Assembly (NCBI GenBank): GCA_018672055.1
Contig: JABHGM010000001.1
Span: forward strand, 72,884 to 136,883
From: a bacterium
GTDB taxonomy: Bacteria; Patescibacteriota; Patescibacteriia; UBA1558; UBA10009
Direction of reading: 5' to 3'
DNA length: 64,000 bases
Under the pieces are notes generated by a model, which had not been told where the DNA came from, made no database searches, and worked only from the letters and a program-made list of their open reading frames with translations. A program made the position numbers and the translations under genes. Below, piece after piece: positions 1 through 17,061 of this stretch (position 1 is the stretch's first letter; each line of letters begins with the position of its first letter).

Positions 1-1778
1 GCTAATTTACTATCAGATAATTTACTTAATATACTCTTTTTATTATATGTATTAATATATTTATTAAATGATTTAGAATAGCCTTTTAAGAGCTTAGCAT
101 ATTTAATAAATAGATCCGGTTCTTTTTTTAATCTATTTAACACCCCTTCACCCACTCTTCTATGATCCTGCTTATCCATAAACACCCAAAAATTATTATT
201 CTGAAAAAATAAGGTAATCTCTTTATATGCATAACCAACTACATCTTTCATCTCTTTACAGATACATTCCATTGACATGTAATTAGGGAATGGGCTCATT
301 CTTTGTCTTTGACTAAGTTGTAATTTTTCCTTACATGGTTTTTTAAGTTCTCTGGCTACAATAGCAGCATGTGAAGTTATTCCACCAATATCAGTGACAA
401 AAGCTGAAGCTTTTTTCATTGCAGGTAATAAATCAGGATTAGTTTGAACAGAAACTATGACATCACCATGCTTAACTTTACTCATATCTTTTGATGAATT
501 AACTATTTTAACAGTACCTATAGCCTTGCCAAGAAAAGCACTCATGCCATGTATTAATGTTTTATCTTCTTGAATCTTTAAATCCCCTACTTTATCTTTA
601 AGATATTTCTTAGCTTTATCCCCGACTAAAAATTCTATATCTTTTCCCTTAATTAGAGTAATACATAATTTTCTTCTCTTTTCTATTAATAGTTTATTTA
701 TTACTTTCTTATTATTTAATAATTTAATTATCTCTTCAGTTGAAGCAAATCTTAAATCTTTAACTGTTAGATTAACTCTTTTAGAAATCTCTTTCAATAA
801 TTCATCTAAAACATAGAATAAGAAAAGTAATGAATCAAATCTTACTGTTTTATTATAACTAAAATTACGAGCTGTTTTAAATAATAGTTTTTCTTCTGAA
901 TTTAAATGTAGTTCTTTATTAAACTTAGCATGTAGTTTCTTTAATATATTACTTTCTTTAATTAATGATTTATACTCTTGATTATACTTATTAGTCTCAA
1001 GATATATCTTAATATCTTCTAAATATTCATTAAAAGTCTTGGTTGGTCCAAGTTGACCAAATGATAACCATTTATAGTTATCATATATTTTATTTATCTC
1101 TTTAAATATTAATGGATATTCATTAATTAATTTATTTTCTAATTTAGAAATACGCTCCTTAATAAATAATTGTTTTAATTTTCTATTTAAACTTATCTTT
1201 TTAACTAACTTTAATATAGTAATTTTCTCTTTATGAACTAAACCTCTATGTGTAGGCGTAATTAAAGGAGTGAAATAATAATTAATTTGTTTATTAATAT
1301 TATATTGATTTATTTTATCTTTAACTATTTCTTTAAGAAGTGTTGTAAGTATGGCATGTCTAAGATCAGGTATTACAGCTATCATGCCTAAATCACTAAT
1401 ATCTTTACCTAGCTGATATAATTTATCTAAGTTAGTTGCTAATTGTTTATTAGATAATTTACTTAAATCTTTTTTTAATATTTCATTTCCTAATTCATAT
1501 ATCTTCTTTGCTAATCTATCTATATCTTTAAGTAATTTAACACCATAATTTGAATCAGTTTTAACATCTTCAATAATCTTATTAGCTAATACTTTAAATT
1601 GATCCATATCACCATACCAATCAATACGATGACCATAAAAAACAACAAAAGAATCTTTAAAATGCATTGGTTTTAAATACTTATGATTTTTTTTAGTTTG
1701 ATGGAAGCCTCTGTGATTTATTCCTAAAGTTAAAGGAGAAACCGAGACTTCTTGATGTAATAATTCTATTTTACTCAT
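1..1778 (-). CDS. PEP-utilizing-enzyme swivel-domain protein, paralog 1 (3' end beyond window; C-terminal region atypical)
   Basis: Manual minus-strand translation from the ATG at 1778, which overlaps the paralog-2 stop as ATGA. The N-terminal ~480 aa are homologous to paralogs 2-4. The phosphohistidine motif GGITSHAAIVARELKKPC is present, but the frame then continues for >110 codons with no stop (KEKLQLSQRQRMSPF...) instead of ending in the VVGTK...DGDKVEVDA tail seen in the other three. Confidence 0.5.
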   Translation of the reverse strand, partial: MSKIELLHQEVSVSPLTLGINHRGFHQTKKNHKYLKPMHFKDSFVVFYGHRIDWYGDMDQFKVLANKIIEDVKTDSNYGVKLLKDIDRLAKKIYELGNEILKKDLSKLSNKQLATNLDKLYQLGKDISDLGMIAVIPDLRHAILTTLLKEIVKDKINQYNINKQINYYFTPLITPTHRGLVHKEKITILKLVKKISLNRKLKQLFIKERISKLENKLINEYPLIFKEINKIYDNYKWLSFGQLGPTKTFNEYLEDIKIYLETNKYNQEYKSLIKESNILKKLHAKFNKELHLNSEEKLLFKTARNFSYNKTVRFDSLLFLFYVLDELLKEISKRVNLTVKDLRFASTEEIIKLLNNKKVINKLLIEKRRKLCITLIKGKDIEFLVGDKAKKYLKDKVGDLKIQEDKTLIHGMSAFLGKAIGTVKIVNSSKDMSKVKHGDVIVSVQTNPDLLPAMKKASAFVTDIGGITSHAAIVARELKKPCKEKLQLSQRQRMSPFPNYMSMECICKEMKDVVGYAYKEITLFFQNNNFWVFMDKQDHRRVGEGVLNRLKKEPDLFIKYAKLLKGYSKSFNKYINTYNKKSILSKLSDSKL

Positions 1779-3214
1779 ATTTTTTTAATTATACCATTAG
1801 TAGCATCAACTTCAACTTTATCACCGTCTTTTAAGACTTTAGTAGCTATTTTAGTGCCAATAACACAAGGTATCTTTAATTCCCTAGATACTATTGCAGC
1901 GTGAGAAGTAATACCGCCTATATCGGTTATAATAGCAGATGCCTTATTCATGGCTGGTAATAATTCTGGCATAGTTTGTAGGCTAACCATAATCTCACCC
2001 TTTTTTATCTTACGAATCTCACTTACATGATTAATTATTCTGGTACGTCCAATTACTTTACCTGGGTAACCAACTCTACCTGATATTTCTGATGATTCTA
2101 CAATATTGGTTTCATTAAAATCAAGATGATCCTTAATATATTTATCAGCATTAATACCTATTATTATCTCCGTATTAAATACATCTTTAGGAATCCAAAC
2201 TGAAAGCTTACGACGTTTCATTAAAATATTTTTAGAAGGCAATTTATTTTTTTGTAAATAATCCAAACATTCTTCCATTGATAGATACATTAAATATTTC
2301 CTGTCTATACCAGTTTCTAATTGAATCTTTTTGGTCAATTTATTTAAAAAAGCATTAACACCATTACAGACTTGCTCTCTCATGCCTTTTAAATAAACAA
2401 AAATGCGACTCACCTCAAACATTCGACGCTCTTTGGCTGTTAAGCCTAATTTCTTTTCAATAGTTATCTGTTTCTTTGATATATTTTTAATACTTTTTAA
2501 GCGTATCTTACTATCTATTATTTTACTAACCTCTGTTCTAGACATGGCTGGTCCTAGATGACCAAAATTCAACCAGAACCATCTAGATAATACTCTATCA
2601 ATAAATTCCTTCCTTTTACTAGAATCTTTTTTTAATTTATACTGAATACTCTTTAATTCTATTTGTCGTTCATCAGATGGTAAATATTTAGTTGATGTAG
2701 TTAAGATATTAAAAATATGTCCAATGTCTAATCTAGTCTTTTTTAATCCAGGAGCTTCTTTAATAATATTTTCTAAAGTAGAAGTAAAAATACCATGTAC
2801 AGTGTCAGCAATTTGACCTAATTGAGAATATACACTTAGTAAAAAAGCGTTATATGATATAACTTTTAAATCTTCTGCTAATTTGTTGTTAGGGATTTCA
2901 TTAAAATCTGTTAGACCATATTCTTGAATAATCTTTATGGTTTGATTTTTAAGCTTATCAGACCTTACTACTAATCTGTTAAAAAACCCAGTTCCTCGTC
3001 CAGCTTTGTTAATTATTACCCAAGCTACTTTAGCCCAATAATTCAAATCCCAAAATATTTCTACTCCCTCATTTTTATATATACTAGCAAAAAAAATTGG
3101 CTTCATCTTTAATAACCTACCCATCTCTTGACTCGGATAACCATAATTTATTGATTGAGTAAGTGGAGTTACGCCAATTTCTGTATGTCCTCTTTTATAT
3201 ATTTTATTTCTCAT
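1775..3214 (-). CDS. PEP-utilizing-enzyme swivel-domain protein, paralog 2 (N-terminal domain of unknown function)
   Basis: C-terminal ~100 aa match the PEP-utilizers mobile domain: GYPGKVIGRTRII...GEIMVSLQTMPELLPAMNKASAIITDIGGITSHAAIVSRELKIPCVIGTK...DGDKVEVDATNGIIKKI. No ATP-grasp or TIM-barrel motifs seen in the N-terminal part. Start overlaps the upstream paralog stop by 4 nt. Confidence 0.6.
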   Translation of the reverse strand: MRNKIYKRGHTEIGVTPLTQSINYGYPSQEMGRLLKMKPIFFASIYKNEGVEIFWDLNYWAKVAWVIINKAGRGTGFFNRLVVRSDKLKNQTIKIIQEYGLTDFNEIPNNKLAEDLKVISYNAFLLSVYSQLGQIADTVHGIFTSTLENIIKEAPGLKKTRLDIGHIFNILTTSTKYLPSDERQIELKSIQYKLKKDSSKRKEFIDRVLSRWFWLNFGHLGPAMSRTEVSKIIDSKIRLKSIKNISKKQITIEKKLGLTAKERRMFEVSRIFVYLKGMREQVCNGVNAFLNKLTKKIQLETGIDRKYLMYLSMEECLDYLQKNKLPSKNILMKRRKLSVWIPKDVFNTEIIIGINADKYIKDHLDFNETNIVESSEISGRVGYPGKVIGRTRIINHVSEIRKIKKGEIMVSLQTMPELLPAMNKASAIITDIGGITSHAAIVSRELKIPCVIGTKIATKVLKDGDKVEVDATNGIIKKI

Positions 3215-4752
3215 ATCTTTTTAATCATTCCCTTTGCAGCATCTACCTCAACTTTATCACCATCTTTTAAAATCTTATTACATCCAAGTATTCCAACTAC
3301 ACATGGCACTTTTAATTCACGAGCTACTATAGAAGTATGGCAGGTTAAACCACCTGCACCACTAACTAAAGCTGATGCTTTTTTCATTGCTGGAACTAAA
3401 CTAGGATTAGTATTATGTGAAACCATAATATCTCCTTCTTTCATTTTAGGCATATCTTTAGGCACACTAATTACTTTGATAGTACCTTTTACTTTGCCCG
3501 GGTATGCACAAGTACCTTTTAATTCATTTGATACTTTTTTCTTAACTTGGAACTTTAAGTTTTTTAAAAACTTTTTAGCTTCACTACCTATTAATACTTT
3601 ATTATTTACTTTGTCATCCTGTACATACCAATAATCCAAAGCTAGTTTTAATCTATCATTTAACATGTCTGCTTTTACCTGTCCCGACTTTACCATCTCT
3701 AATATTTCCCAATATCTCATAGCTCTTACTTGATCTATGGTCAAATTAAAACGTTTGCCTAATTCTTTAAAAATCAATTCATAGTAATACATTGTAGTGT
3801 ATAAGACACTCTTCCTATAATCCTTAACATACATCATTTCTTGAGCTATTTTAATATATTTCTTTTCAAGAGAAGTTAGCTTAATTCTTTTTATTAACCC
3901 AAGTTGTTCTAATTTTTCTCTTTTTCTTTTAGCTTCTAGTTTCTTAAGTAAAACTCTGGCATCTAAGCCTTCTCTCATAAAAGCTTGTAATCTACCAATA
4001 TAATCTGATATAGGATAAGCTGGTCCCCTATATTGATATGTCATTGGAGAAAATATATTAAAATGTTTAATTATTAATTCAGACACTTCTTTATCTATAC
4101 TTGATAAACCATCAACTAATTCATCTAAATCAGATTGTATGAATGTTTCTTTAAGTTTAGTTTTGTTATCTAAAACTAAAGCAATATTTAAAAAACTTTC
4201 TTCTTCTCTTTCCATTACACTAACTTTTGTAGGAGTGCTTAATACTGTAAATACATCAATTAAACTCTTTTTTACTTTAGACCTCTTCCGAGCTCCATCT
4301 ACAATCTTTTTTATAGCTTTAGTGACTCTTTCCTTCTCAGCGTCTGCATGCCATGTTATTGAGGGACTCAAACTATGTTGTTTATAATGTATTTTAAATA
4401 AATTATTAAGCTTTCTATATATATCTTTATTAGACATTTTACTAAAATTCCATGTTTCTATTCTCTTAACTTCTTTTAATAGCTGGTCTGACCAAATAAT
4501 AATATTATTTAAAAAATCCAAAGTCCAATCAGGTTCATTAATTACTTTATTTGCTAAAAATTCAGCTTGCTGATCAAACTCGTCGGCAATGTATACCATC
4601 TGACTAAAATCACCTTGATGATATGTAAAATACTCAGATAACTTATCTCCTAAACCATGTTTAGGCCAATCGAAAAAACCTTTACAAGGATAACCCGTCA
4701 TAAATATTGTATTCTGTGGTATTTCTTCAACTATTTTCCAAGTTTTTTTCAT
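3211..4752 (-). CDS. PEP-utilizing-enzyme swivel-domain protein, paralog 3
   Basis: Same C-terminal swivel domain (AYPGKVKGTIKVI...GGLTCHTSIVARELKVPCVVG...DGDKVEVDAAKGMIKKI). 4-nt start/stop overlaps on both sides. Confidence 0.6.
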   Translation of the reverse strand: MKKTWKIVEEIPQNTIFMTGYPCKGFFDWPKHGLGDKLSEYFTYHQGDFSQMVYIADEFDQQAEFLANKVINEPDWTLDFLNNIIIWSDQLLKEVKRIETWNFSKMSNKDIYRKLNNLFKIHYKQHSLSPSITWHADAEKERVTKAIKKIVDGARKRSKVKKSLIDVFTVLSTPTKVSVMEREEESFLNIALVLDNKTKLKETFIQSDLDELVDGLSSIDKEVSELIIKHFNIFSPMTYQYRGPAYPISDYIGRLQAFMREGLDARVLLKKLEAKRKREKLEQLGLIKRIKLTSLEKKYIKIAQEMMYVKDYRKSVLYTTMYYYELIFKELGKRFNLTIDQVRAMRYWEILEMVKSGQVKADMLNDRLKLALDYWYVQDDKVNNKVLIGSEAKKFLKNLKFQVKKKVSNELKGTCAYPGKVKGTIKVISVPKDMPKMKEGDIMVSHNTNPSLVPAMKKASALVSGAGGLTCHTSIVARELKVPCVVGILGCNKILKDGDKVEVDAAKGMIKKI

Positions 4753-6251
4753 AATTTTTTAATTATCCCCTTAGTTGCATCTACTTCAACTTCATCACCA
4801 TCTTTTAATATTTTAGTTCCTATTTTAGTACCAACAACACAAGGTATTTTAAATTCTCTTGATACTATAGATGCATGACAGGTTAAACCACCTTCATCAG
4901 CTACAATAGCTCTAGCTTTGCGAATAGCAGGTACTATTGAAGGAGTTGTAGCAGTTGATACTATAATGTCCCCATCTTTCATTTTTATCATATCATCAGG
5001 TAAATCTATACGTTTAACTGTTCCTTTTACAATTCCAGGAAAAGCTGACTGACCAGTTATTATATTAGAGTTTTCTAAAATAATTTCTTCTTCTTTGATA
5101 TGCTCTTTTTCAAATTTATCCACCTCTTCCCCTTGATATATTTTTACTTCATTACCGATTGGTATAATTATATGTTTTTTATATCTTTCATTTATTAAAT
5201 CAATGTTTATCTCTTTACCATTTAAACCATCTTCAATTTCTTCTAATAAAGCAGAGCGCACTTGTGATAAGGACCAATTTAAACGTTTAGCTACTTCTTT
5301 TTGCAAAAATTCTAAATGATAATATGATTTAGATTGATAATCCTTTCGTCTTGGTTTTAAATAGACTGCTCTACTTACTATCTCAACATATTTTCTTTCT
5401 TCTTTATTCAAATTCAATTTTTTAAAATATTCTTCCCTCTTTTTAAAGACTTCTTTTCTTTCTTGCTCAAGTTGATTCAATTTATTTTGAGGATCAATAT
5501 CTTTCTTCTTATAATATTTCATGGTTTCAATAAAATCTCCTTCAGTAAAAGCAGGACCTGAATAAACATAAAAAACCCAAGTATATTTTAAAGTGTGCTC
5601 CTTAAGTAATTTGTATACTTCTGGATAATAATTTTCTAATTTTTCTAATATAGTGCTAGCATCTTCAGTTAAAAGTTCTTTATCAGGTAATTTACTATAT
5701 ACATTTAATATTGATTTTTCTTGCTCAAGTGCAAAGGAATCTTCAATGGGCTGAGTAAATACAAAATATGCTTTTTCCAATTCTTCTTTATCTAATTTAT
5801 TAGATAGTATTTCTTTCAATTTATCTTCTATAAAATGCAAATGACGAAAATCAAGTACTGGTACTAAAACTCCATAAGCATATTCTTTAATGTTATATTT
5901 AGTATGTAATTTATAGCTCTTAATTACTTTATTTGTTGAATACTTGGATAAATCATCAGTTAAAAACTGACTTGTAAACAAATTCATCTTTTCGCCATTA
6001 TTTACTGTTTCATCTAATATATTTTCTAAGACTGAAATATCTTTTTCAATTTGTTTTAATAAATTATTATGTGCATCCTCCCACGTACTAATTTTAGCAA
6101 TATAATCAATTTTTTTAGGATAACCTTTTATACCCATATATATCTGGGGTGTATCAGTTATCTTAGATTGATTTATTAAGCTTTTTGTCCAAATATAATT
6201 CCTCCAAAAAAATGAATTATAGTCTATAGCAATTTTTTCCCATTCCTTCAT
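4749..6251 (-). CDS. PEP-utilizing-enzyme swivel-domain protein, paralog 4
   Basis: Same C-terminal swivel domain (AFPGIVKGTVKRI...GGLTCHASIVSREFKIPCVVGTK...DGDEVEVDATKGIIKKL). Shares internal motifs with the paralogs (xGPA..., ...KDYR...). ATGA overlaps with neighbouring genes. Confidence 0.6.
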   Translation of the reverse strand: MKEWEKIAIDYNSFFWRNYIWTKSLINQSKITDTPQIYMGIKGYPKKIDYIAKISTWEDAHNNLLKQIEKDISVLENILDETVNNGEKMNLFTSQFLTDDLSKYSTNKVIKSYKLHTKYNIKEYAYGVLVPVLDFRHLHFIEDKLKEILSNKLDKEELEKAYFVFTQPIEDSFALEQEKSILNVYSKLPDKELLTEDASTILEKLENYYPEVYKLLKEHTLKYTWVFYVYSGPAFTEGDFIETMKYYKKKDIDPQNKLNQLEQERKEVFKKREEYFKKLNLNKEERKYVEIVSRAVYLKPRRKDYQSKSYYHLEFLQKEVAKRLNWSLSQVRSALLEEIEDGLNGKEINIDLINERYKKHIIIPIGNEVKIYQGEEVDKFEKEHIKEEEIILENSNIITGQSAFPGIVKGTVKRIDLPDDMIKMKDGDIIVSTATTPSIVPAIRKARAIVADEGGLTCHASIVSREFKIPCVVGTKIGTKILKDGDEVEVDATKGIIKKL

Positions 6252-7417
6252 ATTTTCTCAAATTTAAATATTTCTCTCTTTACTCTTTGCGTTTCTCTAG
6301 AATAAATTAAAGAACCGCGTTCAGTATCACTTGAACTAATTCTTTTAAAGCCTAAATTCTCAATATCCTCTAAAATATTACTCTCTTTGTTATCTATAAT
6401 AGGTAATATAAATATTACTATACCATTTTCTTTTAAGACTTTATGAAATTCTTTAAATGAATCTAAGTATAAATTAGATAATTCGGAAGTAACATTTTTA
6501 GTTGTCCTATGAGGTGGTCCTAAATATGGTTCCGTTATAATTGAATCAATTGAGTTATCATTAAATGATTTAGTTAAAGATTTAACATCTTGTTTCTTAA
6601 TTTCAACATTTGAAATATCTAAATCCAACTTAGTTTCTAACCAAGATATATTATTCTCTGTATCACGTACTGCCCTATCTGAAATATCTGAACCTTTAAT
6701 ATTATTAAAACCTAAAAGTAAAGCTTCTTGAATAATAGTACCGCTACCACAAAAAGGATCTAGAATAATTTTATCCAGTGAAGTGCCACTTAAATTAATC
6801 ATCATCTTAGCAAGCTTGGGTGGTAACATACCAGATTTATCATCACGTGAAGGTCTGCCATAATCACGATCTGAATATCCTGAAAAATCTTGAACTGTAA
6901 TACTATATCCTAAATAATAATTATCATTATCATTTATTATCACAACATCCAAACCTGAATCAATTAATTTTTCTTTTTTAACAATTACTGAAGACAGCTT
7001 AGTATCTTTGGAAGTTATGAATCTTACTTTAGCTCCATTATCTTTTAATTGACGTTTAATATTTAAACCTATTTTTTTAAAATCATTATTCCTTGATATA
7101 TCATATAGGCTAAAGCCAAAACGAAATTTTTCATCACCACACTTTTCTTCAGCTAATTTAAAAATTTCAGACTCTATACTAGGTTTAGAAACTGAATGAA
7201 TAATCTTAGCTATTTTAATAGTTCCACCTAATCTATCTTGTAATGTATTTACTTTAATCTCATTTAAAACATCTATTAAAAAAACAGAGCTAGTTGAATA
7301 TATCTCCTCATATTCAACACTAAATAGCTCTAAAACAGACTTTATCTCAGCTTTTGATAGATTAGGGTTATTACCTAAGAAAAAAGCATATTTACCCTTA
7401 TTTTGATTAATTGACAT
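6248..7417 (-). CDS. THUMP-like + class-I SAM-dependent RNA (guanine-N2) methyltransferase, Trm11/RlmL (UPF0020) family
   Basis: Motif I LDPFCGSGTIIQEA. Upstream GMLPPKLAKMMINL resembles the Trm11/RlmL pre-motif. A degenerate motif IV (TEPYLGPP) lies ~75 aa downstream. Translationally coupled (ATGA) to paralog 4. Confidence 0.55.
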   Translation of the reverse strand: MSINQNKGKYAFFLGNNPNLSKAEIKSVLELFSVEYEEIYSTSSVFLIDVLNEIKVNTLQDRLGGTIKIAKIIHSVSKPSIESEIFKLAEEKCGDEKFRFGFSLYDISRNNDFKKIGLNIKRQLKDNGAKVRFITSKDTKLSSVIVKKEKLIDSGLDVVIINDNDNYYLGYSITVQDFSGYSDRDYGRPSRDDKSGMLPPKLAKMMINLSGTSLDKIILDPFCGSGTIIQEALLLGFNNIKGSDISDRAVRDTENNISWLETKLDLDISNVEIKKQDVKSLTKSFNDNSIDSIITEPYLGPPHRTTKNVTSELSNLYLDSFKEFHKVLKENGIVIFILPIIDNKESNILEDIENLGFKRISSSDTERGSLIYSRETQRVKREIFKFEKI

Positions 7418-7458
7418 GCTATCTATGAGTTAGCTATAAGAAAAAAGAAATAGTTTAA

Positions 7459-8580
7459 TTACATAAACAGCTCAGATAAATAATGATCTGCTTGAACTAT
7501 TTTAATCTCACCTAAATCTTTTTCTCTTTTTAGAGTTTTCACTACTTGAACGGCTTTCAAATTATACTTATTAGAAAAATATCTTAAATTACTACTCAAC
7601 TTACTATCAGAAACTTTTGCTTCAATTATCTCTTCAATATTATTTTGCGAATCGACCAAGCTAAAATCCACTTCTTTACCATTTTTAGTTCTTAAATATT
7701 TCAATTGGTTATTCTCGCCCAAATAATCATTCCTAGATAGAACGTGTTTTAATAAAGAGATAGCTACAAAATTTTCAAACTTCTTTCCTTCATCACCCTC
7801 AACAAGTCCATTATCATAAAAATATATCTTAGGCTCTTTAAGAATCGATCTAGCGATATTTTTAGAATAAGGAGCTACTCTAAATACTATAAATAAAGCT
7901 TCAAGTATTTCTATGTATTTCTTTACAGTTATGGGTGAAAGTTCAACATCACGGGCAATTGAGTTAAAAGAAACTGGCGAACCCACTCTTCGTCTAAGTA
8001 ATTCAAAAATAGTCTGCATTACACGAATATCATGTATCTGTTCAAAGTCTAAAACATCATTTCTAATTAAACCATCAATATATTGTTTTTGCCATCTATT
8101 AACTTCAACAATATCATTTGATAAAAAAGGCTCAGGAAAACCACCTCTTTCAACAAGGCGATCAAGGACAGCCATTTTATTTCCTGATAATTCAGCCATT
8201 GAAAAAGGCATTAATCTATGAACATAAAATCTGCCAGCTAATGAATCGCCTGCCTGTCTAAATGTTTCTAATCTAGCACTACCAGTAACTAAAATTTTCA
8301 AATTTTTATCTTTAGTATCATAAACACCTTTAATATAATTTTTCCATTTAGTCATTTTATGCAATTCATCTAGAATTAGTAAATCAGTATCTTTTAACCA
8401 TTGTTCATTTTTAATAATCTCTCGATCTTCAAATCTATCATAATTAAGATAAACTACCTTTTTATACTCTTTGCCTATTTCTTTAGCTAACCATGTTTTA
8501 CCAACTTGCCTTGGACCAACAATAAAAACAACCTTTTTATTAAGATCTTTCATTATTTGTTTTATCTGTTTTCTATACAT
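7459..8580 (-). CDS. AAA_14 / DUF4143 family ATPase
   Basis: Walker A GPRQVGKTWLAKEI, Walker B LLILDELH. Overall architecture matches the COG1373-type ATPase. Confidence 0.7.
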   Translation of the reverse strand: MYRKQIKQIMKDLNKKVVFIVGPRQVGKTWLAKEIGKEYKKVVYLNYDRFEDREIIKNEQWLKDTDLLILDELHKMTKWKNYIKGVYDTKDKNLKILVTGSARLETFRQAGDSLAGRFYVHRLMPFSMAELSGNKMAVLDRLVERGGFPEPFLSNDIVEVNRWQKQYIDGLIRNDVLDFEQIHDIRVMQTIFELLRRRVGSPVSFNSIARDVELSPITVKKYIEILEALFIVFRVAPYSKNIARSILKEPKIYFYDNGLVEGDEGKKFENFVAISLLKHVLSRNDYLGENNQLKYLRTKNGKEVDFSLVDSQNNIEEIIEAKVSDSKLSSNLRYFSNKYNLKAVQVVKTLKREKDLGEIKIVQADHYLSELFM

Positions 8581-8652
8581 ATAGTACTATTATACATTAA
8601 AATATAAAATAGTCAAGACTATTATATATTACACTATAAAATAGTCTAAATA

Positions 8653-9390
8653 TTACTTCAATCTCTCTATTTCATCATTTAAAAACATTAAAGTTTCTTT
8701 TTTTATAACTAAGCGTAATTTTTTAAACTTATCATATTGTATTAAATGATTTATATCTTGATCAATAATTGTCTGAGTTATTTCTTTTTTAATAAATACT
8801 ACTAATTCTATTAAAAAATCAATTACTTTCTTCTGCCTTCTTTCCTTAATTACCTCGCTATTATAATCAAAACCATTAAAAAAGAAATGATGGATATCAT
8901 AAAGATCTCTGCCTGCTATCGATTTATTTTTTTCATATCTTTCTATTAAAGCTACTAACTTGTTAGCAAACATAGTTTCAATAGTTTGAGTTGTAATAAT
9001 ACGATCAATTTCTTTAAACCGTATAGTTTCATATTTATTACTCTTAGGAGCAGGGTAAGTAATATCAATTTTTAAAGTATTTCTTGCCCCTATCTTAGAC
9101 GGGTATCTTAAAAAATATTGAGGCACACTTAAACTCTTGTCCTTAATCTCTAAGCCAAGTTTTTTAAATATCTTTTCTAATTTTTTACTAGTTTCTTTTA
9201 TCTCAGTTTTTTTTCCAAGATAATCAAAGTCAAGATCAATCGAAAAACGATCTAAAAAACCACGCATAGCAGCTGAAGTACCCCCTTTAAAACATAATAC
9301 ACTAGCTAAATAAGGATCATTATAGATAGTGCTTAATAATCTATATAGCCAAGCTTTATGCTTAGCATCCTGTTTTTTTGGTAATATCAT
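8653..9390 (-). CDS. abiEii: AbiEii/AbiGii nucleotidyltransferase toxin (type IV TA system)
   Basis: N-terminal CFKGGTSAAMRGFLDRFSIDLDFDY matches the DUF1814/AbiEii signature. Lies directly downstream of an AbiEi-like gene. Confidence 0.7.
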   Translation of the reverse strand: MILPKKQDAKHKAWLYRLLSTIYNDPYLASVLCFKGGTSAAMRGFLDRFSIDLDFDYLGKKTEIKETSKKLEKIFKKLGLEIKDKSLSVPQYFLRYPSKIGARNTLKIDITYPAPKSNKYETIRFKEIDRIITTQTIETMFANKLVALIERYEKNKSIAGRDLYDIHHFFFNGFDYNSEVIKERRQKKVIDFLIELVVFIKKEITQTIIDQDINHLIQYDKFKKLRLVIKKETLMFLNDEIERLK

Positions 9391-9393
9391 ATT

Positions 9394-9954
9394 TTATTTA
9401 TAACCTATTATTTTTTGTAATTTTTTAACTTTATTCCAATTAATTAACCTATCAGCATCAAAATGATACTTTGGATTAAAATATAATAAATCAGCCACAG
9501 CTCTCTCTAAAGTAGCTAGCCTAATTCCATCTTTTTCAATAATACCTGCATCATTATATAGATAATCATCTTTAAGCTGTCTAACAATGTAATTATTATC
9601 TACAATAGTAAATCTTTTTGATGATGAAGAAATTAAAGTAATATAATCTGTCTTTTGGTTAATAATGCCTAAATCAAATAAAATTGACTCTGCACTAACA
9701 TATGAATATTTGTGTAAAGCCTTAATACCTAATAAGTAAGGGTTAACTTGAGAAATAGGTTTAATAGAATAAAAACCTCTATGGACTCTAAATAATAACC
9801 CTTTTTGGGTATAACGCTTTAAAGTAGTATATAACGTGTTTAAGTTAGTAATTCCCCATAGATTAGCTAAATCATTGAAATAAAAAACTACCTCATTCAA
9901 ACTAACTAACTGAGAAAATCTCTTAAGGGCTGTGTTATATTTTACTGTACTCAT
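9394..9954 (-). CDS. abiEi: AbiEi antitoxin / transcriptional regulator (type IV TA system)
   Basis: 186 aa with a winged-helix-like N-terminus. Encoded immediately upstream (3-nt gap) of the AbiEii toxin gene, the canonical AbiE operon order. Confidence 0.55.
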   Translation of the reverse strand: MSTVKYNTALKRFSQLVSLNEVVFYFNDLANLWGITNLNTLYTTLKRYTQKGLLFRVHRGFYSIKPISQVNPYLLGIKALHKYSYVSAESILFDLGIINQKTDYITLISSSSKRFTIVDNNYIVRQLKDDYLYNDAGIIEKDGIRLATLERAVADLLYFNPKYHFDADRLINWNKVKKLQKIIGYK

Positions 9955-10207
9955 ATGTACAGTATATCATAACATAAATTTTATGTCAAATATCAATATA
10001 AAGCTATTATACCTATATTACTAAATAGACCTGTCCCCTCTTTACTATAAAATTATATGAAGCTTAAATTCTAATATTTTTCACTATTTATTTAAAAAAT
10101 ATTAATCTTTAATAATACTTGACAAAAGACATTTTTTTTGCCAAAATACTATAACACTGAATAATCAGTGTAATTTAACCACGTACTTTCTTATTTTAAA
10201 GAAAGGC

Positions 10208-10230
10208 TCCTAAAAACATTGTTTTTAGGA
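10208..10230 (+). promoter_or_regulatory. Perfect 10-bp stem-loop in the rpsF 5' leader; possible S6:S18 autoregulatory element
   Basis: TCCTAAAAAC-att-GTTTTTAGGA sits 16 nt upstream of the rpsF ATG. rpsF operons in many bacteria carry an S6:S18-binding leader. Identity is inferred, not demonstrated. Confidence 0.3.
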
Positions 10231-10245
10231 TAAATTACTACAATT

Positions 10246-10734
10246 ATGAATACAGAATTAACTCATTATGAACTTACCTACATAATTCCAGGTAATGTTC
10301 CAGAGGATGAACATCCTAAAATCTTAGAAAAAGTAAATGAGCTTCTTACAAAATTTGAAGCTGAAGTTACTTCAAATGAAGATCTAGGCAGACGTAAATT
10401 TGCTTATCCAATTAATCACTTACGTCATGGTTTTTACCACACCCTAGAGTTTGATTTAGCTGCTTCTAATGTCAAGAAATTAGAAGATGAAATGAAGCTA
10501 GACTCCAATGTCTTGCGTTTTTTAATTATTAAAAAACGTTTAGTTACTGAAGAAGAGAAAAAAGAAGAAAAGAAAGTTATTGAAAAGATAGCTAAGACTA
10601 AAATAGCTAAAGTCGAGAAAAAAGAAGCTGACAAAGAAAAAGCTGATAAGCAACAAAAAGAAGATAAGAAAAAAATAAGTTTAGAAGACTTAGATAAAAA
10701 ACTTGATGAATTATTAGATGAAGAAGTAATATAA
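10246..10734 (+). CDS. rpsF: 30S ribosomal protein S6 with K/E-rich C-terminal extension
   Basis: YELTYIIPGNVPEDEHPKILEKVNELL...GRRKFAYPINHLRHGFYHTLEF. Position at the head of the rpsF-ssb-rpsR operon. Confidence 0.9.
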   Translation: MNTELTHYELTYIIPGNVPEDEHPKILEKVNELLTKFEAEVTSNEDLGRRKFAYPINHLRHGFYHTLEFDLAASNVKKLEDEMKLDSNVLRFLIIKKRLVTEEEKKEEKKVIEKIAKTKIAKVEKKEADKEKADKQQKEDKKKISLEDLDKKLDELLDEEVI

Positions 10735-10753
10735 CTATTAAATATTTAAAAAT

Positions 10754-11221
10754 ATGGATTTAAACAAAGCCATGATAATTGGCAACTTAACAAGAGACCC
10801 AGAGATAAAAACTACTCCTAATGGTCAAACTGTAGCTAACTTTGGTGTAGCTACTAACTTAACTTGGACTGATCAAAGTGGTCAGAAGCAAGAAAAAGCT
10901 GAATTCCATAATATTGTAGCTTGGAGAAAATTAGCTGAAATTATGGGTCAATACTTAAAAAAAGGTAGTAAAGTATATATTGAAGGTAGACTACAAACAA
11001 GATCATGGGAAGATCAGAATAGTGTAAAAAAATATAGGACTGAAATAATTGCAGATAATATGATTATGCTAGGTAGTAAACCTGGTGCTTCTGCCCCATC
11101 AGAAGGTGAACAAGCAGCTCCTAAACATGATTACGCTCAACCAGAACCAGAAGTAAGCAAGCCTGTTGAAACAAATAACCAAGCTGAAGAAGAAATTAAT
11201 GTTGAAGATATTCCCTTTTAA
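10754..11221 (+). CDS. ssb: Single-stranded DNA-binding protein
   Basis: OB-fold N-terminus (MIIGNLTRDPEIKTTPNGQTVANFGVATN...WRKLAEI...VYIEGRLQTRSWED), acidic tail ending DIPF. Sits between rpsF and rpsR. Confidence 0.9.
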   Translation: MDLNKAMIIGNLTRDPEIKTTPNGQTVANFGVATNLTWTDQSGQKQEKAEFHNIVAWRKLAEIMGQYLKKGSKVYIEGRLQTRSWEDQNSVKKYRTEIIADNMIMLGSKPGASAPSEGEQAAPKHDYAQPEPEVSKPVETNNQAEEEINVEDIPF

Positions 11222-11224
11222 TTA

Positions 11225-11473
11225 ATGAATAATAATACTATGACAAAACAATCTCAAAATCTATTAAATAAAAAACGTTATTGCTATTTCTGTGTAAACA
11301 TAACTAAAGATATGGATTACAAACAATGGCAACAATTACAACGTTTTACTTCATCTTACGGTAAAATTGTACCAAGAAGAAGAAGTGGTGTTTGCTTAAA
11401 GCACCAAAGAAAATTATCTAAAGCTTTAAAAAGAGCTAGATTCATGGCTCTCTTACCATATACAACTAGATAA
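11225..11473 (+). CDS. rpsR: 30S ribosomal protein S18
   Basis: YCYFC...DYKQWQQLQRFTSSYGKIVPRRRSGVCLKHQRKLSKALKRARFMALLPY. Confidence 0.9.
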   Translation: MNNNTMTKQSQNLLNKKRYCYFCVNITKDMDYKQWQQLQRFTSSYGKIVPRRRSGVCLKHQRKLSKALKRARFMALLPYTTR

Positions 11474-11475
11474 AT

Positions 11476-12033
11476 ATGTATTCAATTAGTGACTTAAAAG
11501 TTGGTACTATCATTTCTTATGATAACCAACCATACGTTATTGCCTCAGCACAACATATTAAAGTAGCCAGAGGTGGAGCTAACTTAAAAACTAAGCTTAA
11601 AAACTTAATAACTGGCTCAACATTAGATAAAACATTCAGTGGTGCTGATAAAATAGATGAAGCTGATATTGAAAGATCTAAAGCTAACTTTCTATATGCT
11701 TCAGGTTCAAATTATACTTTCATGGATAATCAATCATATGAACAATTTGAATTAGATAAAGAATTAATTGGGGCATCAGCTGAATTATTAAAAGACGGAC
11801 AAACTGTAGATGTAATGCTTTTTAAAGAGAAGCCAGTTATTGTTAAACTGCCAGTTAAAGTTGAATTAAAGGTTACTGAAAGCCCTCCAGGCGTTAAAGG
11901 TGATACAGCAGGCAGTGCTACTAAAATGATTACCTTAGAAACAGGTAAACGGATAAAAGCACCTTTATTTATAAATCAAAATGATTTAATAAGGGTAAAC
12001 ACAGAAACTGGCGAATACGTAGAAAGAGTATAA
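11476..12033 (+). CDS. efp: Elongation factor P
   Basis: SDLKVGTIISYDNQPYVIASAQHIKVARGGANLKTKLKNLITGS...GVKGDTAGSATKMITLETG. Confidence 0.9.
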   Translation: MYSISDLKVGTIISYDNQPYVIASAQHIKVARGGANLKTKLKNLITGSTLDKTFSGADKIDEADIERSKANFLYASGSNYTFMDNQSYEQFELDKELIGASAELLKDGQTVDVMLFKEKPVIVKLPVKVELKVTESPPGVKGDTAGSATKMITLETGKRIKAPLFINQNDLIRVNTETGEYVERV

Positions 12034-12528: not shown

Positions 12529-13797
12529 TTATTTCAAAACTAATTTTCCTTCTTCAGCTACTATATCTCTCCAATAAAAGTTATTATCTTTCAAATCAGC
12601 AAAAGTCAGCGATAAATATTTTTCTTCATTATGTTTTTTTAAAATATTTGCTAAATGAATCATGATTATGACACTATCATGATTTTTTAATGAAAAATTC
12701 TTATCAAATAACATCTTCAAAAACTGTCCATGCAATATAATACGTTGATCTTTATTAGATAAACTTAATGTGTCTAAACCTGCAAATCCTTTAATGAATT
12801 CTACTTGCCAAGTATTAAATATAGAAACCTTTTCAAGTAAACTAAATTTACTATTTTCTATTAAATTAAATAATAAATTCATTACTAATTTTATATCTTT
12901 TTCACTTATTGCCCTATCAAGTCTATTTATAATTTCTGAATCATCAAATATTGTTTTTGACTCGATATTAGCGAAATATTCACTTATTATTTTATTATAT
13001 GAATCTAAAAATTCATTTTTATTTTTTTCTTTATCTAAATCTTTACCAAATTCATCTTGTAATTCTGTTGTCTCTTCATCATCACTTACCTCATTAACAT
13101 CAAATATATATGGCTGCTTATAATAATTCCCATAATTTTCAGGGTTAGCAAATATATTAAACAGCTTTATAATTCTTTTTAAAGTTGTTTGATCTTCACT
13201 ATTAAGCTTCTTCACATCTTCATTATTTGATATATAACCTGATAATCCTAAACCATTCATTCGACTAGGCCTACCTTCCGTAAAAATTATATAATCATTA
13301 ACCCAATCTTTTATTAATGGAACAGATCTTCCTTTATTAACAGAATAAGAAACATTTTCAGATCCAAGCTTCTCTTCATTTTCCCTTATAGATCCAGTAA
13401 AAGCAGAAATATTAATATAAAAATCTTCTTTAAGCCATCTGGTATAACTAACAAGTAAAGTTAAAATTGGTAATTTATTCTTAAATATAAAAAGTAAATT
13501 ATCTTTTAGTATGTTCTTTATTTGATCTAAACTAAAATTAATTATGGATAATACTTCTAATTTTTTTAGTTCTACATGATACTTGTTATATAAATTTAAA
13601 TTTTGTTTCTTCAACTTACTATCATTTTTATCAAAAACTTCTTTCAATAATTTATATAATAAATAACTATCACCTGGCTCAAGAGAAATAATAAAATCAT
13701 CAACAAATGTTTTTATAAATTTTAAGTTATTGCTGTCTAAAAAATCAGTAATTTGCCAACTATCTATTTTAAGTTCTTCCATTCTTGATCCACTCAT
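12529..13797 (-). CDS. Hypothetical protein, last gene of the giant-protein operon
   Basis: 422-aa ORF with no recognisable motifs. 3-nt gap to the upstream 1084-aa gene. Confidence 0.5.
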   Translation of the reverse strand: MSGSRMEELKIDSWQITDFLDSNNLKFIKTFVDDFIISLEPGDSYLLYKLLKEVFDKNDSKLKKQNLNLYNKYHVELKKLEVLSIINFSLDQIKNILKDNLLFIFKNKLPILTLLVSYTRWLKEDFYINISAFTGSIRENEEKLGSENVSYSVNKGRSVPLIKDWVNDYIIFTEGRPSRMNGLGLSGYISNNEDVKKLNSEDQTTLKRIIKLFNIFANPENYGNYYKQPYIFDVNEVSDDEETTELQDEFGKDLDKEKNKNEFLDSYNKIISEYFANIESKTIFDDSEIINRLDRAISEKDIKLVMNLLFNLIENSKFSLLEKVSIFNTWQVEFIKGFAGLDTLSLSNKDQRIILHGQFLKMLFDKNFSLKNHDSVIIMIHLANILKKHNEEKYLSLTFADLKDNNFYWRDIVAEEGKLVLK

Positions 13798-13800
13798 ATT

Positions 13801-16800
13801 TTATTTTCTTTTATCATTAATAAATTCATCTATTGCCATTTTACCTGTATTGTTATCTTTAATTTTATCCTTAATATCATTTAAGCTATTTGTTAAATCC
13901 CCCATTAGAAAATTCATTACAGATCTATTTTCTCTAAATTGCTTTTTAATTTGTCTTTTTAGTATTTCAATAAATTCTAATCTGGCCATAGAACTTGCTC
14001 TCCAATCTTTTCCCTTCAATTGACCAATTTCGACCATAGAACTTTCTAAAACTAAACCTATAGAACCATTAACAAGCTGCTCTTTATTATTATTTTTAAC
14101 ACCTTTTTTAATATCTGTAACCTTCTGTTTACCAAAATCATCTAAAGTCATAGCAACTTTATCTAAACCATTAATTACATCTTGTATTGACTGGTTAACA
14201 TTGGCAGATTTTTCACCCTTCTCACCCTTCTCAGATTTTTCACCCTTCTCACCCTTCTCGCCCTTCTCAGATTTTTCACCCTTCTTACCCTTCTCAGATT
14301 TTTCACCCTTCTTACCATCTTTAGCCTTCTTACCCTTCTTAGGACTTCTTATTTCATCTTCCAAATCTTCTTCGCCAGGACCTCCATTAATATACATTCT
14401 ATGTTTTTCATAGCCATAATTTTTAACTGATTTTGCAATTTTATCACCAACTATAAATCTACTCTCACTGCCATCTTCAGAATCTACTTTTTCTACATCA
14501 TATACTGCCCCATTTGCAGCATTAATAGCTATCATTTTTCCCGTTATCTTAGACTTGCCGTCCTTATCTCTTATAAATTTACCATCTTTATCTTTTTCTT
14601 TTTCATCAAATTTAACAATCATAAAACCTGTTTTTGATCCTTGTCTTACTTCAATAGCAGCACCCTTAGCATAGTTTCTGTTAGCCTCTGAATTATCAGA
14701 TACAAATTGGGCGCCTGATTTATCATATGAAGCTATACCATTACGCATACTAGCATCTAAGACACTTAAAAATACTCTTAAATCGCTAACAGACTTATAA
14801 TCATGAGCTTTAGTATGTTCAGATTCGTCTTTGCTGAGTGGTGCTCCAAGAGCGCTACCACCAACATTAGTATTACCTGTTCTTGATTTTGTAGCACTAG
14901 CAACCTTATATATTTCATTACTATTACCAGACAATTCATGCATCCTTCTATATGATTCATCAATATCACAACTAGCATTAGTACCATCTCCCATTCTGGC
15001 ACTATACATATGAGCCTGACCTCTTTCTGGACCATCACGCTTAGAAGCTTCAGTTAAACGTTCTCTGGCTACTTCAGTTAATCCATTTTTATCTTTTATA
15101 GTATAATCTAATAACCTCTGTTTACCAGTTTCTGGGTCTGCCCTTACCCAGCCAACATCTTCCCAATGACCATTCGCCCATGCTGGCTCCTCTAAATCAT
15201 ACACAACATCCTTTCCAGCATCAGATTCATCTCCATTATGATCCATAATGATATATTCTTTGAAAAACTTACCCTTCTTTTTAGGTGGCTCTATCTCTAC
15301 ATGGCCATAAATTAATCTTTGTTCTGCTCCTGTGAGAACTTTATTTAATTTATCAAATTCCTTATCTTTTTCCTCTTTTGATAATCCTTTCCATTTTTGT
15401 TCCTTATCCGTTTCATTATATAAATCCTCTTCTCTTTTTTCATCATAGGCAATAGAAGCATTAGAAATTTCTACTTCTAAGTCCTCACCTTTAAAACCTT
15501 CATCTTCTTTTTTTTGCTTAATATCTTTAAGATAATAATATTTTTTTTCTTCTTCAGAACCCTTCTCCATTAAATCTTCCATTATCCTAGGTATGGACAT
15601 TAAATCATCAATCCAAGATTCTTTAGAAGCGTAAGCAAATAGTCCACGAATTACTCTATCTTTTTCGGTGCTAGGTTTCATATCTAATGCTAAATCAAAT
15701 TTAGCCATAACATCTTGCAAACCAGAGACATTCATATCCTCAACTTTAGTTTTTGCTATTCTTGATTCTGCAGTTGTTGCATGAGAAGTTTGTAATTTTC
15801 CACCAGTCATAATTTTATTATAAAAATCATAAGCTTGTGCTGAAGCAACTTGTCTTGATTCATCAAGCAAAACATCGCCACGCTTAGCGAGCCCTTCCCA
15901 ACCAGGTTTAGTCAAAAGCATTAAACTCTTTCTAAAAATACCTGCACCTTCGGCCGTTGCCGAATCCAATACCTTCCTTTCTACATACTTACCGCTTCTT
16001 TTAGCGACAGTTTTTGCCAAGAATCCTGCTCCCTTAAATGATGCTGTAATTGGAGCTAGACCTGCCTTTATAGATCCCTTGCCTATGTCTGATAACTTAG
16101 TTCCTATTTTCCCAGCTATAGTCCCAGCTGCTCCACTCGCTTTTTGACTAAACATTAAAGCCATCCATAATAGAGCTATTGAAACGATAAAAGTAAAAAG
16201 TTTTGGCGTTTCACTTATTGCTGAAACAGTAACTGAAAATTTTTCTTCACTTCCTTCTTTATATTCTATATCCTGCCCACTAACTTCTCCGTATTTAATA
16301 ACATTAGGATCATTAGAAAATTGATTTAATATTGCGCTATCACTTGTTATTGAAAGACTTAATATGGAAAGAGAAAGCCACATAAAAAAAGCTAAAACAA
16401 TACCAATAGTTATTTCTTTAAAAAAATGACCCCAGAATTCAGACCAATATTTTTGTAAATTTGGAAAAGTGTATGCAATAAAAGCAATTGGAGAGATTAT
16501 TACTAAAATCCATAATGTTAATATTCTAAATAAAAGTACTACGAAAAATGCAGCTATAGTAAAACAAGCCACGATTAATAATATTAAACCTAATAAAAGT
16601 CCGCCAAATGCTTCAAAACTTTCACCATCATCATTAACAGTCATACTCAAAATATGTTCAAGCCCAAACGCACTATTTAAATTAATTAAAAGAGCTCCTT
16701 TAAACCCATTTACAAAAGTAAGCATAACTACCTGACTAACATCAATTAAAAAACCAAGAATTGTTTTAGAAAAATTAATTAAAATAGCCATGATAATCAA

Positions 16801-17055
16801 CTTAAATAAAGTTGTCTTATAATGGTATACAGATATTTTTAAAATTGTACCAAAAGCAATAATTAATAATATTACTACCACCGTCATATTACAAACATCC
16901 CTAACTAATGGCCAACCTATTTGCACTGCTTCTGAACTTAAAAAATTATTGTATTGAAAAATAACAACCAATCGCTCCATAAACCAAGCAAGAAGTGTGG
17001 CAGTGAGACTGATAATCTCCATCAAAAGCCAATTTATCATGTTGAAAAAATCCAT
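13801..17055 (-). CDS. Large polytopic membrane protein (N-terminal ~7 TM, large hydrophilic C-terminal region with (GEKSEK)n repeat)
   Basis: N-terminal 330 aa are dominated by hydrophobic helices. Gly/Ala-rich linker. C-terminal KGEKSEKGKKGEKSEKGEKGEKGEKSEKGEKGEKS low-complexity tract. Immediately downstream of the giant secreted protein gene. Confidence 0.6.
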   Translation of the reverse strand: MDFFNMINWLLMEIISLTATLLAWFMERLVVIFQYNNFLSSEAVQIGWPLVRDVCNMTVVVILLIIAFGTILKISVYHYKTTLFKLIIMAILINFSKTILGFLIDVSQVVMLTFVNGFKGALLINLNSAFGLEHILSMTVNDDGESFEAFGGLLLGLILLIVACFTIAAFFVVLLFRILTLWILVIISPIAFIAYTFPNLQKYWSEFWGHFFKEITIGIVLAFFMWLSLSILSLSITSDSAILNQFSNDPNVIKYGEVSGQDIEYKEGSEEKFSVTVSAISETPKLFTFIVSIALLWMALMFSQKASGAAGTIAGKIGTKLSDIGKGSIKAGLAPITASFKGAGFLAKTVAKRSGKYVERKVLDSATAEGAGIFRKSLMLLTKPGWEGLAKRGDVLLDESRQVASAQAYDFYNKIMTGGKLQTSHATTAESRIAKTKVEDMNVSGLQDVMAKFDLALDMKPSTEKDRVIRGLFAYASKESWIDDLMSIPRIMEDLMEKGSEEEKKYYYLKDIKQKKEDEGFKGEDLEVEISNASIAYDEKREEDLYNETDKEQKWKGLSKEEKDKEFDKLNKVLTGAEQRLIYGHVEIEPPKKKGKFFKEYIIMDHNGDESDAGKDVVYDLEEPAWANGHWEDVGWVRADPETGKQRLLDYTIKDKNGLTEVARERLTEASKRDGPERGQAHMYSARMGDGTNASCDIDESYRRMHELSGNSNEIYKVASATKSRTGNTNVGGSALGAPLSKDESEHTKAHDYKSVSDLRVFLSVLDASMRNGIASYDKSGAQFVSDNSEANRNYAKGAAIEVRQGSKTGFMIVKFDEKEKDKDGKFIRDKDGKSKITGKMIAINAANGAVYDVEKVDSEDGSESRFIVGDKIAKSVKNYGYEKHRMYINGGPGEEDLEDEIRSPKKGKKAKDGKKGEKSEKGKKGEKSEKGEKGEKGEKSEKGEKGEKSANVNQSIQDVINGLDKVAMTLDDFGKQKVTDIKKGVKNNNKEQLVNGSIGLVLESSMVEIGQLKGKDWRASSMARLEFIEILKRQIKKQFRENRSVMNFLMGDLTNSLNDIKDKIKDNNTGKMAIDEFINDKRK
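14205..14345. repeat. Coding 9/18-nt tandem repeat (cacccttct / cagattttt units) encoding a (GEK/SEK)n tract
   Basis: Direct visual periodicity of ttcacccttctcagattttt units inside the 13801..17055 CDS. Confidence 0.7.
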
Positions 17056-17061
17056 ATATTA

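Follow-up and report, generated by a model that had tools for sequence, protein, structure and literature searches.

What is the function of a run of phosphohistidine swivel genes that follows an RNA methyltransferase gene in a patescibacterial genome? The question is posed by the first 7,417 positions of a 64,000-nucleotide stretch of contig JABHGM010000001.1 (positions 72,884 to 136,883), hereafter the window, which is part of a 416,887-bp metagenomic parent contig; coordinates with the prefix L001 refer to the parent-contig locus. Five consecutive genes, all on the minus strand, are joined by four ATGA junctions (6248-6251, 4749-4752, 3211-3214, and 1775-1778), exactly where a first-pass annotation of the bare sequence had placed them. 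The following analysis indicates that the four genes behind the methyltransferase, which hold five modules, probably encode the acceptor ('H') subunits of a small-molecule dikinase that is related to rifampin phosphotransferase (RPH) but split, its 'I' subunit being, on this view, an ATP-grasp protein encoded nearby. The assignment of the cassette to the HpeHI/CreHI/PpsAB kind of enzyme follows from the combination of a swivel histidine, an N-domain resembling the rifampin-binding domain (RIF-BD) of RPH, a nearby PPDK_N partner, and homologs in which these parts are fused.

Modules, fold and candidate partner of the swivel proteins

At the C-terminus of each of the four genes behind the methyltransferase, Pfam detects a phosphoenolpyruvate (PEP)-utilizer swivel domain (PF00391; E-values from 5e-16 to 2e-24) with the motif GG[IL]T[SC]H, and no further significant domain in these proteins. 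The catalytic histidine of this motif is present in all five modules and is invariant in 52 family members. The putative H-type subunit paralog 1 (4749..6251, minus strand, 500 aa) consists of a RIF-BD-like helical domain (about 5097-6251) and a swivel at 4767-4979 (PF00391 3e-23 at residues 425-495), with the His459 codon at 4875-4877 and the codon of the KxxR lysine at 5355-5357. Its counterpart paralog 2 (3211..4752, minus strand, 513 aa) carries the swivel at 3229-3441, and encodes His472 at 3337-3339 and K310 at 3823-3825, and in paralog 3 (1775..3214, minus strand, 479 aa), likewise a putative H-type subunit, the swivel is situated at 1793-2008 (PF00391 2e-24), with the His438 codon at 1901-1903. 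A hidden Markov model (HMM) built for the N-domain matches paralog 1 at 3.5e-84 and paralog 3 at 2.7e-63.

The fourth gene extends beyond the window. Its minus-strand frame (1-1778) is open through the window start and contains a second match to the N-domain HMM at residues 490-594; on the parent contig, the gene is a 978-aa in-frame fusion of two modules (L001:11437-14373). Module 4 (333..1778) comprises an N-domain and a shortened swivel, with the His470 codon at 369-371, and module 5 begins at 1..332 with the first ~110 residues of its N-domain, the remainder lying past the window start. The module 4 swivel ends after ARELKKPC (residue 482; window 333-335), covers positions 2-48 of the 72 in PF00391, lacks the ~29 last swivel residues, and joins directly to the second or third residue of module 5. 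The latter is complete on the parent contig, and its swivel matches PF00391 at 4e-14. A deletion of ~90 nt took the end of the module 4 swivel (~29 residues), the stop codon, and the next start codon. Since the fourth gene contains two modules, the locus holds five modules in total and not four paralogs. Of the four paralogs of ~480-590 aa described in the first-pass annotation, the paralogy and the order of helical N-domain and terminal swivel stand, but the fourth gene is not a protein of ~590 aa.

The N-domain is all-helical and has the RIF-BD fold. RPH is the closest solved structure and the sole PDB structure that covers the whole modeled H protein, at 17% identity over the aligned structure. 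The NCBIfam models for PigC, the PRK06241 'PEP synthase' subfamilies, and RPH cover the swivel and up to 320 residues upstream of it, and these alignments always fall in the C-terminal part of the ~870-aa enzymes. Furthermore, the profile of the 52-member family aligns with residues 611-866 of Listeria RPH (E 2e-28), comprising the last third of RIF-BD and the swivel. The N-domain, previously called uncharacterized, is therefore a rifampin-binding fold of the RPH type, partly alignable in sequence, which also occurs in ligases of the PigC type and in the H subunits of dikinases with two components. A degenerate ATP-grasp was also considered for this domain and rejected, as Pfam and NCBIfam found no PPDK_N inside the N-domains and the fold is all-helical and RIF-BD-like. 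Because a TIM barrel is absent and the N-domain is not a degenerate PPDK_N ATP-grasp, the proteins are not ordinary PpsA or PPDK enzymes, in agreement with the earlier proposal.

Near the phosphotransfer site, K310 and R313 are the only invariant N-domain residues in the alignment of the 52-member family, and K314 is near-invariant. Aligned by sequence, K310 would correspond to Arg666 of RPH and K314 to Lys670, and the KxxR motif is kept in all five modules. In RPH, Arg666 contacts the phosphate of phospho-rifampin, and mutation of this residue abolishes the second phosphotransfer, to rifampin (PMC4844700).

The two parts of the modules differ markedly in conservation: mean identity among the five modules is 20% for the N-domains, whereas it is 47% for the swivel domains. 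The conserved part of the modules is the part that would have to dock on a common partner. Paralogs 1, 2, and 5 have orthologs in other genomes at 51-62% identity (61-62% for paralog 1 in L087 and L088), compared with 27-37% to one another; hence, they are ancient, separately conserved lineages, the products of old duplications that have each been maintained. At locus L002 (4713-11916), a paralog 2 ortholog (51% identity) is situated within a nucleotide/NAD salvage cluster that includes four phosphoribosyltransferases, a phosphoribosyl pyrophosphate (PRPP) synthase, a LOG-family protein, a carbohydrate kinase, and an NAPRTase_C fragment. This context may hint at nucleobase or nucleotide-related substrates.

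The candidate partner is located just outside the window. With a PPDK_N HMM built from 30+ homologs, none of the reading frames of the 64-kb window yields an ATP-grasp, a PEP-utilizers_C domain is found in none of the genes and nowhere else in the window, and a PEP/pyruvate-binding TIM barrel is absent from both the window and the parent locus. The earlier remark that no ATP-grasp or TIM-barrel partner is visible is accordingly true of the window, but the conclusion drawn from it is a window-edge artifact: a stand-alone, full-length PPDK_N protein of 323 aa (PF01326 9e-94) is encoded at L001:15366-16337, ~1 kb past the array. [quoted passage not shown] In addition, fused homologs of 790-886 aa (P0107, P0108, P0110, P0113, P0115, and P0117) contain PPDK_N, N-domain, and swivel in this order. 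In P0113, Pfam resolves an ATP-grasp, a ~440-aa middle domain, and a swivel, which is the RPH order, and the same fusion occurs at loci L037, L050, L056, and L076. Domain identities, fold, conservation of catalytic residues in sequence, partner gene, and fused homologs are directly supported, as is the distribution of the arrays.

Arrays, recurrent neighbors and known relatives

Homologs of the 513-aa paralog come almost exclusively from the candidate phyla radiation (CPR; Patescibacteria) and DPANN archaea, and a search with the N-domain alone recovers, from among 1.84 billion, 2,892 representatives of clusters formed at 50% identity. The arrays were scanned with HMMs built for this analysis in 79 loci from GTDB species representatives. 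At least two family genes are present in 39 of the 79 loci and at least four in 17; the largest array has 9 full family genes at one locus, and L057 contains 14 swivel-bearing open reading frames (ORFs) in 21 kb. Multi-module chains recur, with two to four N-domains and lengths of up to 2,309 aa (P0244, four N-domains). A PPDK_N gene exists in 29/79 loci, stand-alone in 24 and fused in 6, with one locus containing both forms. Where present, there is typically one ATP-grasp gene per array, and the ratio of H to PPDK_N genes ranges from 2:1 to about 10:1.

Two kinds of phosphatase-like genes accompany the arrays. HAD hydrolase genes are found in 13/79 loci (L006:20498-21524, L073:4238-6502, L004, L002, L016, L021-L023, L033, L036, L042, L065, and L082) and are fused to H modules in L006/L007 and L073. 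The second recurrent neighbor is a histidine-phosphatase-superfamily gene (His_Phos_1; L089 from 17162 onward, L090 from 16906 onward, and L037:12818-13726). Both superfamilies include phosphomutases as well as phosphatases, and their presence beside the arrays suggests that the phosphate is later moved or removed.

The ATP-grasp gene itself opens a tightly spaced operon resembling a type IV secretion system (T4SS; L001:15366-20474), in which it is followed by a 354-496-aa protein of no known kind, PrgI, a TraC-like protein, and a VirB4/TraG P-loop ATPase. The same order from ATP-grasp to VirB4 is observed in at least seven loci of different CPR lineages (L087, L091, L008, L025, L082, L073, and L020), and in six of these seven, H arrays lie directly upstream of the operon. 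At a DPANN locus (Iainarchaeum), the distance between H and I genes and genes resembling TraC/VirB4 is ~3 kb. An ATP-grasp gene opening the operon goes unmentioned in a published survey of patescibacterial T4SS.

Two-component small-molecule dikinases were named as a subfamily in 2025 (PMC12167813), and the statement in the first-pass annotation that such swivel proteins have no described function consequently applies to the array organization and the substrates, but not to the class. In HpeHI of Rhodococcus, CreHI of Corynebacterium, and the phenylphosphate synthase PpsAB of Thauera, the H or A subunit likewise combines a helical RIF-BD-like domain with a C-terminal swivel, and the ATP-grasp forms a separate I or B subunit of ~320-340 aa (PMC12167813), a likeness at the level of architecture. 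As for the modeled window protein, RPH is the sole PDB structure that covers the whole of HpeH (PMC12167813). HpeH, CreH, and Thauera PpsA share about 45% pairwise identity. However, there are significant differences from these systems. They possess one H per I, encoded by adjacent genes, whereas here five modules (elsewhere up to 9 genes) share the neighborhood with no more than one I gene; they initiate the degradation of phenolics in bacteria that live freely, whereas the arrays occur in CPR and DPANN symbionts without aromatic catabolism. The swivel motif of the arrays, GGxT[SC]H, resembles that of PEP synthase and has Thr at the position occupied by Met in HpeH and RPH, and the I gene heads a T4SS-like operon, unlike in HpeHI, CreHI, and PpsAB.

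Compared with RPH (PDB 5FBS/5FBT/5HV1), the same three elements are found, an ATP-grasp, a helical substrate domain, and a His swivel, in an order shared by the fused CPR homologs, and the basic residues of the phosphotransfer site (Arg666/Lys670 and K310/K314) align in sequence. In contrast, RPH is a single polypeptide, and the window proteins lack an ATP-grasp, share only 17% identity with RPH over the aligned structure, score far below the cut-off of the RPH family, and vary at the position of Glu667. There is no indication that rifamycins are the substrate. The prodiginine ligases PigC, RedH, and HapC resemble the window proteins in their substrate and swivel domains (NCBIfam PigC 551-880 against residues 193-511 of the window protein), but PigC is a single ~880-aa chain with its own ATP-grasp, encoded in secondary-metabolite clusters, and the window proteins score 62-74 bits against a cut-off of 1300. 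In PigC-type enzymes, phosphorylation derived from ATP activates the substrate for condensation; the phosphate can therefore serve purely as an activating group. PEP synthase (PpsA) and PPDK possess a homologous ATP-grasp and swivel, and the window swivels are closest to that of PEP synthase, but the third domain is a PEP/pyruvate-binding TIM barrel there and a helical RIF-BD-like domain here.

Thus, a known class appears with new features: many H per I, multi-module fusions, and restriction to and expansion in CPR and DPANN, together with phosphatase partners, the PEP-synthase-like swivel motif, and an I gene heading a T4SS-like operon in at least seven loci. In the literature on CPR, Patescibacteria, or DPANN in connection with the swivel, PF00391, RPH, or phenylphosphate synthase, we found no account of such arrays, and a survey of rph-like genes was the only related report.

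Proposed mechanism and competing explanations

The reaction scheme proposed here is inferred from the homologous enzymes RPH, PpsAB, and HpeHI (PMC4844700; PMC12167813); the biological role and the idea of a shared ATP-grasp subunit are likewise inferences. The ATP-grasp subunit would bind and present ATP, and the swivel histidine of GGxT[SC]H would attack the beta-phosphate, the gamma-phosphate leaving as Pi and AMP being released. The phospho-His swivel would then rotate back to the helical domain of its own module, and there the KxxR residues would position the phosphate for transfer to a hydroxyl-bearing acceptor. The gene ratios, the contrast in conservation between swivel and N-domain, and the fused forms argue that one I subunit may serve five H modules of differing substrate specificity. 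The favored substrates would be small metabolites scavenged by these reduced symbionts and trapped or activated by phosphorylation. The authors of the HpeHI study proposed that such dikinases may be scavenging systems that trap diffusible compounds (PMC12167813), an idea that would fit organisms importing most of their building blocks.

Several observations weigh against a split dikinase of this kind. In this genome, an opposite-strand gene of 119 aa separates the array from the ATP-grasp gene, and the two belong to separate operons, the ATP-grasp gene heading the T4SS-like operon instead. Of the 28 loci flanked by 3 kb or more in both directions, 10 have PPDK_N within 3 kb, so the two partners would frequently be required to act in trans. 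The position of RPH Glu667 varies (D/P/G/T/E) across the five modules. The first swivel of the fusion protein, being shortened, may not fold, and module 4 may be inactive. With phosphatases as recurrent neighbors, a simple kinase would seem to work in vain, unless its phosphate serves only to activate the substrate or is passed on. Finally, the tight junction between methyltransferase and array is conserved down to 50% methyltransferase identity, which would allow a functional link between the two, although an unlikely one.

The same chemistry could serve defense, in which case the array would be an RPH-like battery inactivating antibiotics or toxins made by the host or by competitors. This role is unlikely, although it draws on RPH as the closest solved structure to the window H protein, on a survey that counts rph-like genes among the antibiotic-resistance-like genes of CPR (PMC8651080), on the divergence of the N-domains, and on a region that is a hotspot for insertions of the toxin-antitoxin and abortive-infection type. 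However, the curated RPH model NF041857 yields 26-62 bits against a cut-off of 999, and phosphatase genes co-occurring with the arrays would undo an inactivation. The conservation of paralog orthologs across distant genomes, in a family shared with DPANN, fits conserved metabolites better than shifting antibiotics.

The defense genes of the locus are situated beside the block. An AAA_14/DUF4143 ATPase (PADLOC candidate PDC-S01, 7e-60) and an AbiEi/AbiEii pair occupy 7459-9954 on the minus strand, which confirms the neighborhood that had been described for the block. They are inserted between the rpsF-ssb-rpsR-efp operon and the methyltransferase, in the window contig and its closest relative L087 only; in L088-L090 and L093, the rpsF operon directly abuts the methyltransferase. 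A defense system was rejected as the identity of the array itself, since PADLOC gives no match for the three complete H paralogs or the ATP-grasp protein and matches only AAA_14 and AbiEi/AbiEii. Further genes of the toxin-antitoxin type have been acquired in relatives at L087:10920-14201 and at L090:9325-10518 and 13647-14711, namely AbiEii, PhdYeFM/ParE, an HTH protein with a DUF6036 nucleotidyltransferase, and Fic. The array region appears to be a tolerated insertion hotspot. On the far side, at 12529-25467 (minus strand), three genes (422, 1084, and 2801 aa) show synteny with L087-L090, and a ~1000-aa homolog of these in L090 has a weak match to TrbL_3 (VirB6-like); by this weak match, T4SS-related genes may flank the rpsF, methyltransferase, and dikinase block on both sides.

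A second alternative, the reading of the first-pass annotation, joins the methyltransferase and the swivel proteins into one RNA or nucleotide unit, for example with phosphorylation coupled to m2G methylation, and it is quite improbable. Its first component is a Trm11-family (THUMP-type) protein, a putative S-adenosylmethionine-dependent RNA N2-guanine methyltransferase (6248..7417, minus strand, 389 aa), which heads the operon. It matches PF01170/UPF0020 at 1e-16 and TIGR01177 at 6e-29 over residues 11-339, with 101 bits against a cut-off of 316.55, and is therefore a distant, CPR-specific branch. In the motif DPFCGSGT, every residue except the near-invariant P221 is fully conserved across 29 homologs (D220, F222, C223, G224, S225, G226, and T227). 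A PDB profile search aligns archaeal Trm11 (6zxv, 3e-14) with the catalytic domain alone, and Pfam detects no THUMP by sequence. The full-length AlphaFold2 model (pLDDT 92.6), however, superposes in Foldseek on Trm11 6zxv_A (E 5e-27, TMt 0.81, 388 alignment columns), followed by Trm14, TrmN, and RlmL as the next fold matches. This full-length superposition, together with DPFCGSGT and PF01170, supports the original 'THUMP-like Trm11/RlmL-type' identification. Compared with archaeal Trm11, which forms m2G10/m2,2G10 in tRNA (PDB 6ZXV, 5E71), the protein has the same full-length fold in the model, an N-terminal THUMP-type module, and a class I methyltransferase domain with DPFCGSGT, but it is only ~21% identical, falls under the TIGR01177 cut-off, and lacks a THUMP domain that Pfam can detect by sequence.

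The linkage of this gene to the array was judged from seven homolog loci (L087-L093), a small number of genomes. Beside the ATGA overlap with paralog 1, five of them point to a unit: the array follows after a 1-nt gap in L088 and L089 (53% and 50% methyltransferase identity) and more loosely in L087 (74%), behind inserted toxin-antitoxin-type genes, and in L090 (51%), behind inserted HTH and nucleotidyltransferase genes and with a Fic gene inside the array. In L091 (48%), the fifth, which lacks an array, the methyltransferase directly precedes the ATP-grasp gene and T4SS operon. Neither L092 nor L093 (both 43%) has an array; the methyltransferase still lies opposite rpsF-ssb-rpsR-efp in L093, but not in L092. 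Outside the clade, a homolog of the window methyltransferase is found in none of the 79 GTDB array loci, and more than 3,600 homologs of ~390-415 aa, several named Trm11 by their sources, are spread across CPR. Moreover, toxin-antitoxin, HTH, and Fic genes are tolerated between methyltransferase and array, and the full-length model has the fold of the tRNA m2G10 enzyme Trm11. The linkage is thus lineage-specific, being retained by relatives whose methyltransferase is at least 50% identical: the coupling to an RNA methylase reported earlier is conserved in the window's own clade but absent elsewhere. The oldest conserved feature is the position of the methyltransferase divergent from the rpsF operon, the array lying downstream in one clade only; hence, the gene probably encodes a tRNA methyltransferase with a housekeeping role, which stands outside the dikinase system and whose co-transcription with the array would be confined to this lineage. 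Four-nucleotide overlaps are frequent in compact AT-rich genomes, so the ATGA junctions point to an operon and to nothing exceptional. A promoter and terminator scan returned 79 candidates against 67 expected, a chance level in AT-rich DNA that does not allow the transcription unit to be defined from the scan, and Rfam and tRNA scans of window 1-12000 gave no match.

That the swivel proteins act without an ATP-grasp, in phosphoryl exchange or relay or as accessories of the neighboring T4SS, is highly improbable. HpeH alone catalyzes phosphotransfer between a phospho-substrate and a substrate (PMC12167813), an ATP-grasp gene is absent from the nearest 3 kb at two thirds of the fully flanked loci, and the conserved order from ATP-grasp through the protein of no known kind, PrgI, and TraC to VirB4 in seven loci, with arrays just upstream in six, would agree with such roles. 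The T4SS adjacency, however, may be merely inherited gene order, and the fused ATP-grasp/N-domain/swivel proteins argue that the three domains act together. To our knowledge, the swivel domains of every known family receive their phosphate from an ATP-grasp or a PEP-binding domain.

Fragmented or degenerate PEP synthase or PPDK genes, suggested by public annotation names such as 'phosphoenolpyruvate synthase/pyruvate phosphate dikinase' and by swivel domains closest to the PEP synthase swivel (8a8e, 3e-43), are virtually untenable and ruled out by the domain analysis, with no TIM barrel, a helical RIF-BD-like N-domain, 118 bits to the PEP synthase PpsA model against a cut-off of 598, and ORFs that are intact and conserved as orthologs.

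Implications for ultrasmall symbionts

The arrays are less exotic than first proposed, yet they are a real, widespread, and unexplained feature of ultrasmall symbionts. CPR and DPANN genomes measure ~1 Mb and encode very little metabolism, and many of them still keep 5-20 kb of paralogous dikinase genes. The conservation of every paralog lineage in distant genomes points to several substrates that are distinct and important. Their identity could reveal which host molecules are captured or activated by the symbionts, a central open question of this lifestyle. It would also extend the two-component dikinase subfamily well past aromatic catabolism and would supply a natural set of divergent substrate-binding domains working with one common ATP-grasp subunit. 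For annotation, the names 'PEP synthase' and 'rph' should be dropped for these genes.

More tentatively, and with a lower probability than the split dikinase itself, CPR and DPANN may share a modular platform of one ATP-grasp and many acceptors, the latter being tandemly arrayed H modules of ancient divergence, that traps or activates host-derived metabolites, often together with HAD or histidine-phosphatase/mutase genes. If this were true, the platform would be at the core of how ultrasmall symbionts live off their hosts, possibly tied to T4SS-mediated exchange.

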